Positions 1,920 through 10,241 of a stretch of DNA of 28,394 nucleotides are shown here, in pieces. The notes under the pieces are model-generated. The model was not told the DNA's origin, did not search any database, and saw only the letters and a list, made by a program, of their open reading frames with translations. Source of the DNA: Gammaproteobacteria bacterium (GTDB lineage Bacteria; Pseudomonadota; Gammaproteobacteria; SZUA-152); the NCBI GenBank assembly GCA_050118235.1, contig JASFLF010000001.1:1-28394 (forward strand), read 5' to 3'. The position numbers and the translations under genes are program-made. The first letter of the stretch is position 1. Every line of letters starts with the position of its first letter.

Positions 1920-1983
1920 TTGTTGAGATTATTTTCCAGTGCACGTGGCGCCCCATAAGTGCGCTTCCACAAAAACGGATAAT

Positions 1984-3231
1984 ATGAATAGAAGGCAATT
2001 TCTTAAATATTCCACGGGCATAGGCGCCATGAGTCTGGCGCTGAATGGTTGTCGCTACTGGCCCGCAGAAGGATTATTAAATCCGTGTTTGCCGGACAAC
2101 CTACCCCACGAGCTAAAAAATCATGATGTGGTGCAACGCGCATGGCAGGGCATAGACGTTGATCAGTTCTGGGATTGTCATACGCATTTAATCGGCTTGG
2201 GCGACAGCGACTCGGGAATCTGGGTCAGCCCGCATATGCGATCGTTGTTGCATCCCATTCAATTTACGCAGTTTACATTTTATCTAAACGGTTCCTGTGC
2301 GGATTCGAATGATGCGCAAGAGACGCAAACCATTGATGAGCGATTCGTTAACCGCTTAGTACGATTGCATGATGATTTTCCTAAAGGGGCGAAATTCATG
2401 TTGATCGCATTTGAGCATCATTATGACGGCGAAGGCAAACAGCGTGATGATCTAAGTCCTTTTTATACGCCGAATCACTATGCCGCTAAAATAGCCGGAC
2501 AGTATCCGCAGCGGTTCGAATGGATCGCATCGGTACATCCTTATCGTGAAGATTGTCTTGCCATGTTGCAATGGTGCGTGCGCAACGGAGCCCGCGCAAT
2601 CAAGTGGTTACCGGGTGCTATGGGAATCGATCCAGGCTCGCGAAAATGCGATCAATTTTATGAAGCTGTGGCCAAGTACAGGATTCCGCTGTTAACTCAT
2701 AGCGGCGAAGAGCAAGCGGTTAGTGTCAGCGGCAGCGAAGGTTTGAATAATCCTTTGTTAATGCGTCGTGCCTTGGAACATGGTGTGCGGGTGATATTTG
2801 CGCATTGTGCATCCCTGGGGGAAAGTGTGGATTTAGACAAAGGCCCTAATGGGGCTCGGGTCAGCAATCTGGATTTGTTTTATCGATTGTTGGCAGAGAA
2901 GAATTACCAAGAGCGGCTGTACGGCGATATCTCGGCGATTACCCAAGTTAACCGAGACAAAGCCGTCATTGAGGCCATTTTCACGCGTACTGAATGGCAC
3001 GCCAATCTGATCAACGGTTCGGATTACCCTTTACCGGGAGTGTTTCCAATTATTTCCACTCAGAGTTTTGCGGATTGGGGATATATTCAACAGAGGGAGG
3101 CCGATGTTTTGGCGCAAATTCGCCGTTTTAATCCTTTGTTATTCGATTTTGTGCTTAAGCGTATCATTAAAGTCAATGCCAACAGATTGGCCCCGGCTGT
3201 TTTCGAATCTCGGCGCGTTTTTTCCGCCTGA
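1984..3231 (+). CDS. Amidohydrolase-family metalloenzyme with Tat signal, possible lipoprotein
   Basis: The ATG at 1984 gives MNRRQFLK (twin-Arg), a hydrophobic stretch and LNGC (atypical lipobox). Metal-binding motifs: DCHTH, THSGEE, AHCAS, GSDYP. The ORF-track start at 1939 is probably too early. Confidence 0.8.
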   Translation: MNRRQFLKYSTGIGAMSLALNGCRYWPAEGLLNPCLPDNLPHELKNHDVVQRAWQGIDVDQFWDCHTHLIGLGDSDSGIWVSPHMRSLLHPIQFTQFTFYLNGSCADSNDAQETQTIDERFVNRLVRLHDDFPKGAKFMLIAFEHHYDGEGKQRDDLSPFYTPNHYAAKIAGQYPQRFEWIASVHPYREDCLAMLQWCVRNGARAIKWLPGAMGIDPGSRKCDQFYEAVAKYRIPLLTHSGEEQAVSVSGSEGLNNPLLMRRALEHGVRVIFAHCASLGESVDLDKGPNGARVSNLDLFYRLLAEKNYQERLYGDISAITQVNRDKAVIEAIFTRTEWHANLINGSDYPLPGVFPIISTQSFADWGYIQQREADVLAQIRRFNPLLFDFVLKRIIKVNANRLAPAVFESRRVFSA

Positions 3232-4986: not shown

Positions 4987-6000
4987 ATGAAACACACACT
5001 CTGTGTCTATCGGGGAGCTGCACTTGCTCGCTATGGTTTCGGTCATGGTCATCCGTTCAGCCCCGATCGGCTTGATGCTTTCTATCAGGAATTCCAACAG
5101 CAACAACTTGCCCATCACCCGGCGATTACGCTATGCGATCCTTGCCAAGCCTCGCAGGAACAGATCGAATGGTTCCATGATCATGACTATGTGGAAAAAG
5201 TAAAACAGCTCTCAGAGGTTGGTTTGGGGTTCCTGGACAATGGTGATACACCGGCTGTCAAAGGAATTTATGAAGCGGCGGCGACCGTGGTGGGTACGGT
5301 GTTGGACGGTATGGAGCGAATCATGGCAGGCCGGTGCGATAAGGTATTTATACCCATCGCCGGCCTGCATCATGCGAGCCGCAACAGTGCCGCCGGGTTT
5401 TGTGTGTTTAACGACTGCGGCGTGGTTATCGAAGCATTGCGCCGCTGTTATAACATAAAGAAAATCGCTTATGTGGATATAGATGCACACCACGGCGACG
5501 GCGTGTTCTACAGTTTCGAAAACGATCCGGATTTGTATTTTGCGGACTTTCACGAAGATGGCCATTACTTATATCCGGGCACTGGCTTTGACGATGAAAC
5601 GGGCAAAGGGCCGGCTAAAGGCACAAAGCTGAATATCAACATGCCTCCGGATTCCAATGATGAGGACTTTTTGGAGAAATGGTCCGAGGTGGAGGCGTTT
5701 TTCGAATCACATGCGCCTGAGTTTGTTTTGTTCCAATGTGGTGCCGACAGCATTGCCGGCGATCCCATTACTCACTTGCGTTATACCCCCCAAAGCCATG
5801 CGTATGCTGCTGAGCGTTTGTGCTATCTGGCGGATAAATACGCCCAAGGGAGGCTGTTGGTCATGGGAGGTGGGGGATATAATCACAAAAGTCTGGCACG
5901 GGCGTGGTGTGCCGTAGTGGATAAGATGGCAAATTATCCTGGCAGTACACTTAAAAAGAATTTTTTACCACGAAGCCATGAAGAGCACGAAGAAATTTAG
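4987..6000 (+). CDS. Histone deacetylase / AcuC-family zinc-dependent deacylase
   Basis: GHGHPF, GLHHA, GFCVFND, VDIDAHHGDG, YPGTG, QCGADS..GDP and GGGGY. GGGAGG ribosome-binding site upstream. Confidence 0.9.
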   Translation: MKHTLCVYRGAALARYGFGHGHPFSPDRLDAFYQEFQQQQLAHHPAITLCDPCQASQEQIEWFHDHDYVEKVKQLSEVGLGFLDNGDTPAVKGIYEAAATVVGTVLDGMERIMAGRCDKVFIPIAGLHHASRNSAAGFCVFNDCGVVIEALRRCYNIKKIAYVDIDAHHGDGVFYSFENDPDLYFADFHEDGHYLYPGTGFDDETGKGPAKGTKLNINMPPDSNDEDFLEKWSEVEAFFESHAPEFVLFQCGADSIAGDPITHLRYTPQSHAYAAERLCYLADKYAQGRLLVMGGGGYNHKSLARAWCAVVDKMANYPGSTLKKNFLPRSHEEHEEI

Positions 6001-6184
6001 ATAAGTATTTTTCGTAGTGGTGAATCCTTTGTCGGTGGGCATTACTCTGTAGGGAATCGAAGGCTAAAGTGGCCACATAAAGGCCCCATTCTCATTGCCT
6101 CGTAACATTTGAAAAAATTTCACATGAAGTGTTTTAAAAGATTTTTTTCTTCGTGTTCTTCATGGCTTGGTGGTGAATGGCAAT

Positions 6185-6220
6185 AAAAAAGCCTCACGGT
6201 GGTGATCCGCAAGGCTTTTT
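6185..6220. terminator. Bidirectional intrinsic terminator-like hairpin
   Basis: AAAAAAGCCT-CA-CGG-TGGTGAT-CCG-CA-AGGCTTTTT: a GC stem with an A-run on the left and a T-run on the right. Confidence 0.7.
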
Positions 6221-6242
6221 GACGTTGTTGAAACGAATGGAC

Positions 6243-6302
6243 TCAGTAACCTGGCGCTTTGGCACCTCCTCCATAAGTCCCACACATACAGTCATTAGAC
6301 AT
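6243..6302 (-). CDS. Putative 19-aa small peptide MSNDCMCGTYGGGAKAPGY
   Basis: Minus strand reads AAAGGAGGTGATCC-T-ATG TCT AAT GAC TGT ATG TGT GGG ACT TAT GGA GGA GGT GCC AAA GCG CCA GGT TAC TGA, followed by a terminator. Too short for the ORF track. Confidence 0.5.
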   Translation of the reverse strand: MSNDCMCGTYGGGAKAPGY

Positions 6303-6303
6303 A

Positions 6304-6317
6304 GGATCACCTCCTTT
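6304..6317 (-). promoter_or_regulatory. Extended Shine-Dalgarno sequence
   Basis: AAAGGAGGTGATCC is the reverse complement of GGATCACCTCCTTT, the conserved 3' end of bacterial 16S rDNA. Confidence 0.7.
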
Positions 6318-6575
6318 CATCAGGGTTACTACAAACCGCTCCGCAAACACCCCTGGAAATGAAGTGGAGCAGCGCCACCAAAATTCTATAAGTAGTAATC
6401 ATAGCCCAGAATCGGAAAATGTAAAACACTAAAAATAATTATAAATAAATTAGTAAGATAGCTCTATTTTGAAGTCGATTAATTGGCACTGTGGTGCTGT
6501 TGTGGGAATACTATGTTGTTGTTGAGCACTATTGGCATCGCCAATGCACTTTGCGTTTAAATTCCAGCAAATGGA

Positions 6576-9500
6576 TTGCGTATGTCTCAACATTTTCAGC
6601 ACAACGCCAAGGATAGGCAAAGTCAGCCGCTGTTTCTTGGCACTTGGATTGTTGTCGTCGTTTTGCTCATCACCGCTTGTACAGGGGGTGGGGGAGATGG
6701 CGGTTCGCCACCAGTCCGTAAATCGGCGACTCCCCAAACGCCGGCCAACCTCAACGCCATTGCCGGCAATCAACAGGTGACACTAACTTGGGGGACAGTG
6801 CCCGACGCATCCGGTTATACGCTGTATTGGAATAATACGCCTGATGTGGCTAAAGATTCTTCCCATGTGGTGCGAAACGTCTCTCCAGGCTATCGGCATC
6901 AGGAATTGACCAATGGTCAGGTTTATTTTTATCGAATTGCCGCCGCTAATGGCAGCGGCGAGAGTTTGCCCTCCGATGAAATCACCGCGATGCCCGGGGG
7001 ACACACACTTGCCGATACGGTGACGGATGCTAATCTTCGCCATTGTTTAACGAACTACAGCACCAGTACACCTGTTTATGCCGATACGATTAGCGGTGAA
7101 GTGGATTGCTCTTACCGCGGTATAAATGATCTTGAGGGCTTGCAGTTTTTAGCGGCACTGACGGCGCTTAATTTAGCCGGTAACAATATTCAAAATATTT
7201 CCGCATTAAGTCAGTTAAGTTCACTGACCACTTTGGACTTAAGTGGTAATCAACTTAACCGTGACGCGGAAGCTGTGTTAGAGGCTTTGTTCCAATTTGG
7301 GGCCTTGACGCAGTTGTCGATAGCAGGCAATCCGCAGCTGTCCTGCGCGTTCATCGATGCTATGCTCGATACCATTTCAGCTACCGATATTTCCGCCAGC
7401 GAAGCTGGTGTGAATTGCGCCGTTTACAGTCAAACACCGGCACCCATAGGTACATTAACGCCGGTGGCCGCTAAAGCCATCGGCGGCAATGAGAAGGTAA
7501 CCGTGACATGGGAGGAAGTGACTGGTGCTTCGCATTACAACATTTATTGGGGTACCGCAAGTGGAATAACCACAGAGTCGGAAAACGTCATCGCCGGTGC
7601 ACATCCGCCCTATGTGCATTCGGGATTGTCTAACGGTGCTACGTATTACTATGTGGTCACCGCGGTGTCCGGTGGCGCTGAAGGGCGGCTATCACCGGAA
7701 GTCTGGGCGACGCCCAGCAGTGAAGGTACGGCCATTGACGGTGTGTTTACCGATACCAACTTGCAATCCTGTGTTTCGGACTACGCGGTCGGCAAAGGGT
7801 GGACATTTACTCATGAGATAACCGGTTACCTGGACTGTTCCTCTCGCGCCATTTCGGATTTGCAGGGCATTGGGCAGTTGCCGGAGCTGTCCCAGTTGAA
7901 CGTCATGAATAACGCCATTGCCGATACCACGCCGCTGGCGACATTGACCAATTTGACGCGGCTGTATATCAGTAACAATCAAATCGATAGTCTAGTTGGG
8001 CTGGCGGATTTGTCATCATTGAATTTCCTTAACTTAGGGCGTAACCGTATCACCACGGTAAATGCGCTGGCGGGATTAGACAATCTCACAGCGTTGTATC
8101 TCAACAGCAATCAAATAGTGGACGCGGGAGCGTTGGCCGGCCTGATAAATTTGCAGATACTGGACTTGCGCGAAAACTCTATAGGTGGCGAGGATATTGG
8201 TAACATCGATGAATTGGCGAGCCTGGTAAATGCAAGCTCTATCTTGTTAGCGGGTAATTACGATATTGCGTGTACGGAACTGGCTGCATTGTTTACCGCC
8301 CTGGGGCCGAATATTGTGGATATCGCTGCCAACGTGGCTAGTATTGATTGTATAGGCGTGCCCAATCCTCCGCTAAATGTCAGTGCGGCCGGCGGCAATC
8401 AGCGCGTTATTCTAACTTGGGATAATATTATCAATGCGTCGGCGTATAACATTTATTGGTCCAATTCGCCCGCGGTAAGCATATCGTCCGCAAACAAGAA
8501 AGCCAATGTTCGCTCCGGCTACCAACACACGGCGCTAACCAATGGGCTTGCGTACTACTATGTAGTGACAGCCGAAAATGCCAGCGGTGAGAGTGAAATA
8601 TCACAGGAAGTTTCCGCCGTGCCTCAGCAAGTGGTGATCGCCGGTTTGTTTGCCGACAGTAATTTACAAACCTGCATAGAAGAGCTGGCTTCGATGAACG
8701 GATGGACTACGGCTGAGCAAGTCAGCGGGGTAGTAAATTGTTCCGCCAGGGCAATTTCCGATGTAAGCGGAATTGAGCATTTAACCGGCGTTACGGCATT
8801 ATCCTTAAATGAAAACAATCTCACCGACATTACCGCCATAGGCTATCTGGATAAGCTTCGTTCGCTGTCGCTGTACCGCAATAACATCACCAGTGTGGAT
8901 GCGCTGGTTAATATGACGGCTTTGCGTGATTTGTTTATTAGCAATAATCTCATCAGCAAAGTACACCCCGTGGGGAGCCTGCCGCAGTTGCAAGTGGTGG
9001 ATTTGCGCAATAACCGGATTGGCAGTAGCGGCAGTGGCGGTGTGGACCAACTCACTTCGCTGACAAACGCCACACTGATCAGCGTGTCTGGCAACCCATC
9101 TATATCGTGTATTGAATTGCAGAATCTGCTGGACACACTGGGTGCCAGTGTAATTGATATGAACAGCGCCATAGCCGGCGAGAATTGCACCCGGCCTTCG
9201 CTAATACCCGCGGGTATCCAGGCAGTGGGCGGTAACAGCCAAATCAGCTTACGCTGGGTTGAAGTGCCGGTGGCTACTGCGTATAACATTTACTGGGCTA
9301 CGGTATCGGGCGTGACACCTGCCAGTGGGCAGAAGGTAACCGTAACGTCACCACAATATGCGCACACCGGTTTGGATAACGATACGACGTATTATTATGT
9401 GATTACGTCGCAGTTGGCCAGTGGACAGAGCGCGCCGTCTGAAGAGCTTGCCGCACGACCTTCGGCCAATGGTGTACCGTTGGCGGGCTTGTTTCCCGAC

Positions 9501-10241
9501 CGGGCATTGGCCAAATGTGTGAATGCGCTTGCCAACAGCAATGGCTGGTCTTATGCGCTGGAGGTCAATGGTATATTAAATTGTTCCGCACAGCAGATTA
9601 CGGACCTGAGCGGCTTGGAACAGTTAAGCAACTTGAGCGTGTTGCGCTTGGGCAGTAATAACATTGAAGATATTTCTTCTGTGGCGTCGCTGGGCAATTT
9701 GACTTTCTTGGACTTATACAACAATGCCATTAGTGACGTCAGTGTTTTGTCTGGTCTTAACACTTTGCGCACCTTGTATCTGCATAATAATAATATTTCC
9801 GATATCAGTGCATTGGCGGGGTTGAACAATCTGGACTATTTGATCCTGGATGAAAACGCGATCAGTGATCCCACGCCGATTACCGGCATCAACACGCTAA
9901 CACGCTTGTTTTTTCGAGCCAATTTGTTAACCGACGTCAACGCTTTTGATCAGTTGACGCAGTTGACAGAGCTTTATTTGAACAACAACAGCATTACCGA
10001 CGTGAGCGCGTTGGCGGGTATGGTGTATTTGCAACAACTGGATTTACGTAATAATCATATTGGTGGTCAAGGGGTGGGCAATGTCGACACGTTATCGAGC
10101 CTCACCAATGTCAGCAAGATACGTCTATCGGGAAACAACTTGATTTCCTGTACCGAGTTAACCTCTTTGATCGCGGTGTTGGGGCCCAACGCTACCGACC
10201 TGGGTGAAGCCCAGCTAGGGGTTAATTGTCAGGCACCGTGA
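6576..10241 (+). CDS. Large lipoprotein with four tandem FN3 + leucine-rich-repeat modules (internalin-like LRRs)
   Basis: Hydrophobic WIVVVVLL, then lipobox ITAC, then a GGGGDGG linker. Four FN3-like units (GNxxVxLxW...YxxYW...YYY/F) are each followed by DxxLxxC...C-capped LxLxxNxI repeats ending GNxxISC...C. Start may be 6576 or 6582. Confidence 0.88.
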   Translation: MRMSQHFQHNAKDRQSQPLFLGTWIVVVVLLITACTGGGGDGGSPPVRKSATPQTPANLNAIAGNQQVTLTWGTVPDASGYTLYWNNTPDVAKDSSHVVRNVSPGYRHQELTNGQVYFYRIAAANGSGESLPSDEITAMPGGHTLADTVTDANLRHCLTNYSTSTPVYADTISGEVDCSYRGINDLEGLQFLAALTALNLAGNNIQNISALSQLSSLTTLDLSGNQLNRDAEAVLEALFQFGALTQLSIAGNPQLSCAFIDAMLDTISATDISASEAGVNCAVYSQTPAPIGTLTPVAAKAIGGNEKVTVTWEEVTGASHYNIYWGTASGITTESENVIAGAHPPYVHSGLSNGATYYYVVTAVSGGAEGRLSPEVWATPSSEGTAIDGVFTDTNLQSCVSDYAVGKGWTFTHEITGYLDCSSRAISDLQGIGQLPELSQLNVMNNAIADTTPLATLTNLTRLYISNNQIDSLVGLADLSSLNFLNLGRNRITTVNALAGLDNLTALYLNSNQIVDAGALAGLINLQILDLRENSIGGEDIGNIDELASLVNASSILLAGNYDIACTELAALFTALGPNIVDIAANVASIDCIGVPNPPLNVSAAGGNQRVILTWDNIINASAYNIYWSNSPAVSISSANKKANVRSGYQHTALTNGLAYYYVVTAENASGESEISQEVSAVPQQVVIAGLFADSNLQTCIEELASMNGWTTAEQVSGVVNCSARAISDVSGIEHLTGVTALSLNENNLTDITAIGYLDKLRSLSLYRNNITSVDALVNMTALRDLFISNNLISKVHPVGSLPQLQVVDLRNNRIGSSGSGGVDQLTSLTNATLISVSGNPSISCIELQNLLDTLGASVIDMNSAIAGENCTRPSLIPAGIQAVGGNSQISLRWVEVPVATAYNIYWATVSGVTPASGQKVTVTSPQYAHTGLDNDTTYYYVITSQLASGQSAPSEELAARPSANGVPLAGLFPDRALAKCVNALANSNGWSYALEVNGILNCSAQQITDLSGLEQLSNLSVLRLGSNNIEDISSVASLGNLTFLDLYNNAISDVSVLSGLNTLRTLYLHNNNISDISALAGLNNLDYLILDENAISDPTPITGINTLTRLFFRANLLTDVNAFDQLTQLTELYLNNNSITDVSALAGMVYLQQLDLRNNHIGGQGVGNVDTLSSLTNVSKIRLSGNNLISCTELTSLIAVLGPNATDLGEAQLGVNCQAP

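Follow-up and report, generated by a model that had tools for sequence, protein, structure and literature searches.

Locus and distribution

The element described here lies on the minus strand of a stretch of 28,394 nucleotides (the window) on contig JASFLF010000001.1 of the gammaproteobacterial assembly GCA_050118235.1 (GTDB lineage SZUA-152). The source genome is a metagenome-assembled genome (MAG) of 4.05 Mb in 696 contigs and is 76% complete. In the element, a short open reading frame (ORF) follows an extended Shine–Dalgarno (SD) sequence. The SD AAAGGAGGTGATCC (= gAAAGGAGGTGATCC) occupies 6317–6304 and is followed by a T and by the ATG at 6302–6300. After the ATG, the frame reads TCT AAT GAC TGT ATG TGT GGG ACT TAT GGA GGA GGT GCC AAA GCG CCA GGT TAC TGA. 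It comprises 19 codons, encodes the peptide MSNDCMCGTYGGGAKAPGY and stops with the TGA at 6245–6243. An earlier note on this DNA had read the same order of SD, single nucleotide, start codon and 19 codons, and the sequence confirms it. The note had missed a conserved 5′ domain of hairpin and pseudoknot (6377–6321) and the helices that enclose the ORF. Taken together, the element is probably an independent, stand-alone gene for a structured small mRNA of about 190–205 nt. The locus comprises the following features:

6383–6425, minus strand: promoter region with −35 TTTACA (6425–6420) and −10 TATGAT (6403–6398), 16-nt spacer, predicted by a consensus scan
6390–6383, minus strand: second −10-like sequence TATAGAAT, containing TAGAAT (6388–6383)
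6371–6377, minus strand: P0 5′ strand TGGCGCT, at or near the RNA 5′ end, with the partner AGCGCCA at 6258–6252
6336–6372, minus strand: P1 hairpin, stem CTGCTCC (6372–6366) with GGAGCGG (6342–6336), apical loop CCAGGGG (6356–6350)
6321–6325, minus strand: CCCUG, proposed partner of the P1 loop CAGGG in the pseudoknot PK1, from invariance and RNAalifold
6304–6317, minus strand: extended SD AAAGGAGGTGATCC, complementary to 14–15 nt of the 16S rRNA 3′ tail
6243–6302, minus strand: mini-ORF of 19 codons plus stop, the family norm being 14 codons
6252–6258, minus strand: P0 3′ strand AGCGCCA, in other members the stop codon plus CGCC in the P3b hairpin loop
6239–6280, minus strand: P3 domain, GGACT (6280–6276) with AGTCC (6243–6239), enclosing the 3′ half of the ORF
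6272–6263, minus strand: second SD-like run GGAGGAGGTG inside P3, read from the sequence
6185–6220, minus strand: intrinsic terminator, stem AAAAAGCCUUGCGG with CCGUGAGGCUUUUU, loop AUCACCA and U6 run, a 13-bp hairpin by RNAfold

The earlier note had proposed TAGAAT as a −10 hexamer and a terminator downstream of the ORF. Both are present. TTTACA/TATGAT is the better sigma-70 pair and lies slightly further upstream. Most homologues have a TTGACA-type −35 and a −10 that ends 5–10 nt ahead of the P0 strand, so P0 is probably the extreme 5′ end of the RNA. From the promoter positions in homologues, the RNA 5′ end in the window is predicted at about 6392–6376. The terminator follows P3 after about 30 nt. 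A simple terminator scan did not flag the hairpin at 6220–6185. A GC-rich hairpin and a T-run are located at this position in all homologues.

A BLAST search of 40 relatives, a check that the earlier note had suggested, detected the element in six further genomes belonging to the family, and SD and frame are kept. Within the order, the distribution is patchy (7 of 32 genomes, 4 of 7 genera). An exact-pattern scan with one genome per species yielded 21 true loci in four phyla. Gammaproteobacterial loci came from Amphritea, Motiliproteus, Oceanicoccus, Cellvibrionales, Acidiferrobacteraceae, Ectothiorhodospiraceae and others. Four further loci belong to Nitrospinota and one each to Desulfobulbaceae, Lentisphaerae and Kiritimatiellae. 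A metagenome scan in which the SD region was left free gave 24 loci, 19 of them true members. Both scan patterns demanded CAGGGG, CCCTG and ATG, and only the seven BLAST-found copies are unbiased in these motifs. In total, 35 homologues from Gammaproteobacteria, Nitrospinota, Desulfobulbaceae and Lentisphaerae were aligned to a covariance model, R1 (34 are distinct in the ORF tally). The match from Kiritimatiellae is truncated and came in addition. The DNA of the source MAG is present in metagenomes from wetland, marine sediment and rhizosphere. In a same-family MAG labelled Thiohalomonadales (L025), the element is identical to that of genome G003.

Some matches were rejected. The metagenome matches L063, L064, L069, L078 and L079 lack an SD and are chance matches, as is L039 from the genome scan. 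In 150 genomes sampled evenly across the phylum, model R1 found no true member. Of its weak matches, L046 and L047 are apparently located inside coding sequence, and L048 lies in a coding region with three-base periodic conservation in relatives; all three are attributed to chance.

A second, degenerate copy is located in the same genome (G000 contig C20:12088–12155, minus strand; locus L049:1501–1568). It keeps ATG TCT AAT, P3a, P3b and the terminator and has a TGA at codon 4. The SD is replaced by GGGTTTTACC, and P1 and the pseudoknot are missing. This copy is 79–80% identical to intact copies of another genus (g3) and is missing at that locus in same-genus genomes, which suggests that it was acquired separately and has since decayed.

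No gene neighbour is conserved across phyla, and flanking genes are kept only among close relatives. Neither an association with tRNA genes nor phage or plasmid matches were found. A convergent gene of the deacetylase family (4987–6000, plus strand) ends on the far side of the terminator; hence, the element is not the leader of any gene. The earlier note had described a separate unit of about 190 nt with an extreme SD and a small ORF, divergent from a gene for a leucine-rich repeat protein. This description holds: the unit is unrelated to the divergent gene, and its frame is kept across phyla.

The gene context bears on a group of readings in which the element would serve a neighbouring gene, as a leader peptide, an attenuator or a cis-regulatory or antisense element. 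In further readings of this group, the gene would be a protein-coding ORF of 61 codons on the plus strand (6177–6362), or the ORF would have arisen by chance. The succession of short ORF and terminator is reminiscent of an attenuator that depends on ribosomes, and the 61-codon ORF runs antisense to the element. However, no regulated gene lies downstream of the terminator, and the neighbours, including the downstream genes, differ in every lineage. The antisense ORF is not conserved. In Nitrospinota, only 34–38 of its codons are open, and the linker lengths vary by non-multiples of three. The covariation of the helices described below is not predicted by coding on the opposite strand. Conservation across phyla excludes a chance origin. 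The whole group is extremely improbable, and the leader, attenuator, antisense and opposite-strand readings are refuted by the context and covariation data.

Predicted RNA structure and the ribosome-binding site

All homologues have P0 5′ strand, P1, SD, AUG frame, P3 and terminator in the same succession. Base pairs were counted in the 35 aligned members on the structure including pseudoknots. Paired cells amounted to 83.5%, compared with 73.1 ± 0.6% in shuffles (0 of 500 reached the observed value) and at most 48% when the 3′ partners were slid. The covariation score was 0.372 versus 0.193. P0 pairs GCGUC at the extreme 5′ end with GACGC, which consists of the stop codon and CGC. Compensatory changes affect four of its five pairs, for example GTGTC/GACAC, GGGTT/AACCC and CTGGTGTT/AGCACCAG, and 91% of cells are paired. 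RNAalifold alone predicted this helix. P1 is a hairpin of 11–13 bp with a different sequence in almost every lineage; compensatory changes occur in each of the 11 model pairs, and the share of paired cells is 84%. Its loop sequence CAGGGG is invariant (35/35), as demanded by the search patterns. RNAalifold also selects the helix PK1, formed by the P1 loop CCAGGGG and a CCCUG located 5–10 nt ahead of the SD. In the window, the CCCUG lies 6 nt upstream of the GGAGG core and 3 nt upstream of the 14-nt 16S complement.

The 3′ domain P3 has an outer and an inner part. P3a/P3c is a long helix from about codon 6 to well past the stop codon, with compensatory changes in 11 of 15 pairs. P3b is the inner hairpin, and its 7-nt loop carries the stop codon. 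Changes in P3b are mostly one-sided; in the Acidiferrobacteraceae copies, it is wholly different yet complementary (AUCGG/CCGAU). In the window, P3b deviates from the family consensus. No nucleotide separates the 3′ strands of P0 and P3b. From pseudoknot geometry, a full P0 and a full P3b would not coexist. The RNA may alternate between two states, or the inner pairs of P3b may be open.

The SD of the family has the tract GGAGGUGAUC with the core GGAGG, and the order of elements is GGAGGUGAU(C/U), two arbitrary nucleotides and AUG. All 19 true metagenome members, found with a pattern free of the SD, have GGAGGTGAT(C/T) exactly 2 nt ahead of the ATG. Only this part of 9–10 nt is invariant across the family; the 5′ extension is variable, and two non-complementary nucleotides precede the ATG. 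The 14-mer of the window occurs there once, and 0.18 matches with up to two mismatches are expected per shuffled window. The exact 12-mer AAGGAGGTGATC is found once in the whole draft genome. One-mismatch matches to it number 12, compared with 13 for a reversed-pattern control.

A 16S gene was found neither in the window's own MAG nor in five relatives. The 16S tail was judged from two 3′ ends found in the order, GGATCACCTCCTTTC and GGATCACCTCCTTTA, both from a genus without the element. Against these, the SD of the window is complementary to 14–15 nt, which is the whole single-stranded 16S tail. The complementarity claimed in the earlier note is thus borne out. Its remark that the spacing between SD and ATG is very short was wrong: the GGAGG core is 7 nt from the ATG, the normal optimum, and the additional complementarity occupies the spacer.

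When folded without pseudoknots, the SD core has the YUCCCUG tract as its default partner in 18 of 34 members. Formation of PK1 could therefore gate access to the SD. This leads to a different reading, a sensor RNA of the riboswitch-like or protein-gated type. The CCAGGGG/CCCUG pseudoknot would bind a small molecule, a ribosomal or platform protein or the ribosome, and the ligand would decide whether CCCUG pairs with the P1 loop and leaves the SD free or masks the SD. Apart from the predicted partner of the SD core, the sensor gains from the invariance of CAGGGG and CCCUG amid a wholly changing P1 stem, which exceeds the needs of base pairing, and from the mutual exclusion of the two supported helices P0 and P3b, which suggests two states. 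This invariance is partly due to search patterns that demanded both motifs, and only the seven BLAST copies are free of this bias. The SD-masking hairpin is weak, with 4 bp and a loop of 8–9 nt. A downstream target gene is missing, Rfam riboswitches gave no match and the gene context offers no clue to a ligand. A sensor function is therefore considered improbable.

Other SD-like and anti-SD-like tracts were observed. In 30 of 34 members, an internal SD-like run (GGAGG, GGAG, GAGGT or GGGG) precedes the stop codon by 7–8 nt, the same spacing as between SD and AUG. In the window, the corresponding run GGAGGAGGTG is now 18–22 nt away from the displaced stop. Such a run could hold a terminating ribosome or could be a mere P3a/P3b junction. 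The window has two anti-SD-like tracts on the minus strand, the terminator loop AUCACCA (6206–6200) and CACUUCAUUUC in the P1 apex (6354–6364). The latter resembles the 16S tail CACCUCCUUUC and drives the minimum free energy structure of the single sequence. Either tract could mask the SD in the window RNA; neither is conserved beyond the genus. The P1-apex tract was rejected as a family feature. A role of the terminator as an antisense copy of the ribosome-binding site was also rejected: AUCACCA can pair with GGUGAU, and CACCACC is present in a terminator arm of the same-genus genome G001, but no other member has such a tract.

Reading frame and peptide

In 30 of 34 members, the ORF is 14 codons long. 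The 21 members that were found with no restriction on length gave the same picture, with 14 codons in 17 cases, 11 in two, 13 in one and 19 in the window. The start codon is ATG in all 34 members, including the seven BLAST-found copies; both scan patterns demanded it. At the common stop position, TGA (25), TAG (5) and TAA (4) interchange. The sole length change inside the ORF is a deletion of 3 nt in Lentisphaerae. Of the two other frames, +2 is closed in 32 and +1 in 12 of the 34 members. The window copy has lost the usual stop (TGA to AAA, plus 1 nt), and its frame continues to the next TGA. Its whole C-terminal third is replaced by an unrelated tail of six residues, with P0, P1, PK1, SD and P3a kept. 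The earlier note had pointed to a second in-frame ATG at codon 6. It is present (6287–6285), but this start is not conserved; codon 6 is ATT, ATC, ATA or ATG.

The groups encode different peptides: MSNRCIIGASGGTC, MSERLIEQTPGQAC, MLSDSIKGASGVIC and MSDGCIEVLTG. They have in common only Met-Ser and, usually, a C-terminal Cys. The CxC motif highlighted in the earlier note is not conserved, with Cys7 in only a few members. Codons 9–14 are strands of P3a and P3b. In the main group, synonymous variation is absent at S2, R4 and C5, which suggests that the nucleotides themselves are constrained. Close relatives differ by more non-synonymous changes (N3Y, N3H, I6T, I7T, I6M, I7C) than synonymous ones. 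Translation of the short frame is probably selected, and the sequence of the peptide itself appears to be largely free of selection.

The main rival to a structured small mRNA is that the micropeptide is the functional product and the RNA merely a very small, very well initiated mRNA. The 14 amino acids (19 in the window) would act as a regulator, a signal, a metal ligand or the precursor of a modified peptide. Frame, start and stop position are kept across phyla with interchanging stop codons, and the only indel inside the ORF is a multiple of three. Ser2 is kept with synonymous TCT, TCG and TCA in the alphaproteobacterial relatives discussed below, and Ile6 is encoded by ATT, ATC and ATA. 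One large group, the sediment gammaproteobacterial group, has a fairly constant peptide, MSNxCIxGASGGxC, so that a function of the peptide is conceivable. Against this stand the few residues in common between groups and the conservation of codons 9–14, which is explained by P3a/P3b pairing. The missing synonymous variation at S2, R4 and C5, the excess of non-synonymous changes and the swapped C-terminal third of the window copy, which kept its RNA helices, argue in the same direction. Judged by the criteria for ribosomally synthesised and post-translationally modified peptides and micropeptides, the family has no peptide core conserved between groups and no conserved neighbouring genes for maturation, modification or export. 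Synthetic RreB and RreR peptides of the alphaproteobacterial RNAs are unstructured and without phenotype (PMC5711450). A peptide as the functional product is therefore unlikely, and the metal-binding or modified micropeptide proposed in the earlier note lost its footing with the differing peptides and the best-kept codons lying in RNA helices.

Relation to rre RNAs and proposed mode of action

The closest counterparts of the structured small mRNA are rreB and rreR, small mRNAs named for ‘ribosome-regulated expression’ (Hahn et al., RNA Biol 2017, PMC5711450). The rreB of Bradyrhizobium is an mRNA of 165 nt with a 17-nt SD and a GTG-started small ORF (sORF) of 14 codons. It co-sediments with 30S subunits and is weakly translated, and removal of the start codon stabilises it. 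Its relatives (rreR, with 18 codons) occur in several alphaproteobacterial orders. A GTG start is the rule; ATG was noted by the authors in Azospirillum (PMC5711450). In Rfam, the whole window gave no matches at gathering thresholds. The only family that aligned was RF01867, ‘Caulobacter sRNA CC2171’, with 22.4 bits and E = 0.005, compared with a gathering threshold of 75 bits. The alignment spans the model from end to end with an unaligned middle, and the aligned parts are GAAAGGAGGUGAUCC, the start, UCU and the terminator. The best CC2171 score among 11 loci of the family was 29.3 bits, also below 75. CC2171 was validated by Northern blots in Caulobacter and Methylorubrum.

Thirteen alphaproteobacterial rre loci were fetched with the Rfam model for comparison. 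They show GGAGGTGATCC-N-(A/G)TG-TCN, a 7-nt spacing, a frame of 14–25 codons and a hairpin-locked 3′ half. The similarities to the window family are manifold. Both are stand-alone units of about 165–190 nt in a non-conserved context, with their own promoter and terminator, predicted here from promoter-like hexamers and a hairpin. The SD is extended on both sides so that it can pair with the free 16S tail, its GGAGG core is separated from the start by 7 nt, and a short sORF follows directly (14 codons in rreB, 18 in rreR, usually 14 in the family and 19 in the window). Codon 2 is Ser (UCN). The 3′ half of the sORF is located in a long hairpin, and the peptides are unrelated between clades.

There are also differences. 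rre RNAs have been described only in Alphaproteobacteria, whereas the window family is found in Gammaproteobacteria, Nitrospinota, Desulfobulbaceae, Lentisphaerae and Kiritimatiellae. rre RNAs begin about 10 nt before the SD (caacaaNcGAAAGGAGG), whereas the window family has a covarying 5′ domain of about 60 nt with the P0 strand, P1 and the CCAGGGG/CCCUG pseudoknot. The Rfam model of CC2171 has no counterpart of P0, P1 and PK1, and the CAGGGG/CCCTG domain is missing from all 13 alphaproteobacterial loci displayed. The complementarity of rre RNAs is uninterrupted over at least 16 nt (16–17 nt) and runs into the GTG start; in the window, it extends over 14–15 nt and ends at two non-complementary nucleotides before the start, which is always ATG in the family. 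Model R1 recovered none of the alphaproteobacterial rre loci in the same 150-genome sample. The window RNA thus falls outside both rreB/rreR and RF01867, which marks it, by its sequence features, as a structurally distinct subfamily in other phyla. The searchable literature held no paper describing this subfamily and no functional follow-up on rre RNAs.

By analogy, the window RNA probably works like an rre RNA. This grading refers to the kind of RNA, an rre-like structured small mRNA; its transcription, 30S binding, weak translation and physiological role are what we infer. Binding to 30S subunits and weak translation were shown for rreB only, and the window family is known here from its sequence. 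The alternative raised in the earlier note, in which the RNA would bind or hold 30S subunits, is in line with the experiments on the related rreB (PMC5711450).

In the proposed mechanism, two RNA domains, P1 with PK1 at the 5′ side and P3 at the 3′ side, would be joined by a mostly unstructured stretch. This linker contains the extended SD with 10–15 complementary nucleotides, the AUG 7 nt after GGAGG and about five free codons. P3 would start at about codon 6 and take in the rest of the ORF, and P0 would act as a clamp between the RNA 5′ end and the stop-codon loop. The steps from docking onwards are carried over from rreB. The 30S subunit would dock very tightly via the long duplex of SD and anti-SD, with the AUG in the P site. 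Departure from the start would be hindered by the strong duplex behind, with the pseudoknot just behind as well, and by the stable P3 ahead. Initiation complexes would form readily and clear slowly, and the RNA would stay on ribosomes and be weakly translated. Translation through the frame would open P3 and P0 and expose the RNA, coupling decay to translation. The target of selection would be the RNA and the act of translating, not the peptide.

A comparable arrangement is the ‘entrapment’ by rpsO/S15 of Escherichia coli, in which pseudoknotted translational operators are located on the 30S platform just upstream of the SD. In both cases, a pseudoknot lies few nucleotides 5′ of the SD, and a stalled 30S–mRNA complex at the start codon is proposed. 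Operators of this type are 5′ untranslated regions of real genes and need a repressor, whereas the window RNA has only the frame of the 14-codon type and no known partner protein.

A more far-reaching variant is that the RNA is not really an mRNA but a dedicated ribosome-binding riboregulator that clasps the 30S subunit. The SD duplex of 10–15 bp would be the anchor, the CCAGGGG/CCCUG pseudoknot would dock at the platform side, P3 would block the entry side and P0 would close the RNA into a ring around the subunit neck. Such an RNA could keep free 30S subunits bound or in store, sense them, or alternate between a closed and an open state, and the 14-codon frame would serve only as a timer for release and decay. 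If so, it would be a new RNA class acting on the ribosome itself and horizontally spread among sediment and marine bacteria. This variant is unlikely.

Expression of the proposed small mRNA was examined in metatranscriptomes. Parts of the region are present in four of them. In X17, a contig of 272 nt (6090–6361) is identical to the window, and the neighbouring genes have no coverage in the same run. Metatranscriptome contigs carry no strand, and library preparation often loses small RNAs. These data lend weak support to transcription of the element.

Several points weigh against an rre-like structured small mRNA. The X17 contig gives no strand and extends 95 nt past the terminator, and in the three other metatranscriptomes the neighbours are covered and the element is not. 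Homology to rreB or CC2171 is not established, since the Rfam score falls well short of the threshold and the alphaproteobacterial RNAs lack the 5′ domain. The CC2171 alignment is weak evidence because the common letters are largely those required by any perfect SD and start. Overexpression of rreB caused no growth phenotype (PMC5711450), which argues against a simple titration of ribosomes. In pseudoknot-free folding, the SD has an unpaired probability of 0.32 (0.41 with PK1 imposed), compared with 0.34–0.35 for the rest of the RNA, and is thus not predicted to be particularly accessible. PK1 lacks covariation because both strands, including CCCUG (35/35), are invariant. The drawing of a single-state structure is too simple, as P0 and full P3b exclude each other. 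Finally, the fairly constant peptide of the sediment gammaproteobacterial group would be compatible with a function of the peptide.

Small mRNAs with a giant SD have been a published curiosity of unknown function since 2016. The design of the rre type is found here outside Alphaproteobacteria in at least four other lineages. Its binding core is invariant, its frame length is kept and its peptide is free to change, so that selection appears to act on the encounter of RNA and ribosome, not on the peptide. The covariation-supported model with P0, P1, PK1 and P3 yields precise, testable mutations. Experiments are feasible because two carriers are in culture, Amphritea sp. HPY (NZ_CP194015.1, locus L023) and Motiliproteus sp. 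MSK22-1 (NZ_MIEQ01000049.1, locus L034). For annotation, the element is a gene that ORF callers and Rfam miss at present.

Neighbouring parts of the window provided further observations. A 430-aa ORF (1939–3231, plus strand) is located between genes for an MFS transporter and an M18 aminopeptidase and has no Pfam match at E ≤ 0.001. The divergent neighbour of the element (6576–10241, plus strand) encodes a protein of 1221 aa that carries a fibronectin type III domain at its N-terminus and numerous leucine-rich repeats. Its Pfam matches are LRR_4, LRR_8 and fn3, and it is not linked to the element in other genomes. The terminator hairpin at 6185–6220 has T-runs on both strands, and metatranscriptome contigs of the convergent deacetylase-family gene stop at 6125–6159. 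The terminator is probably bidirectional and also ends this convergent gene.

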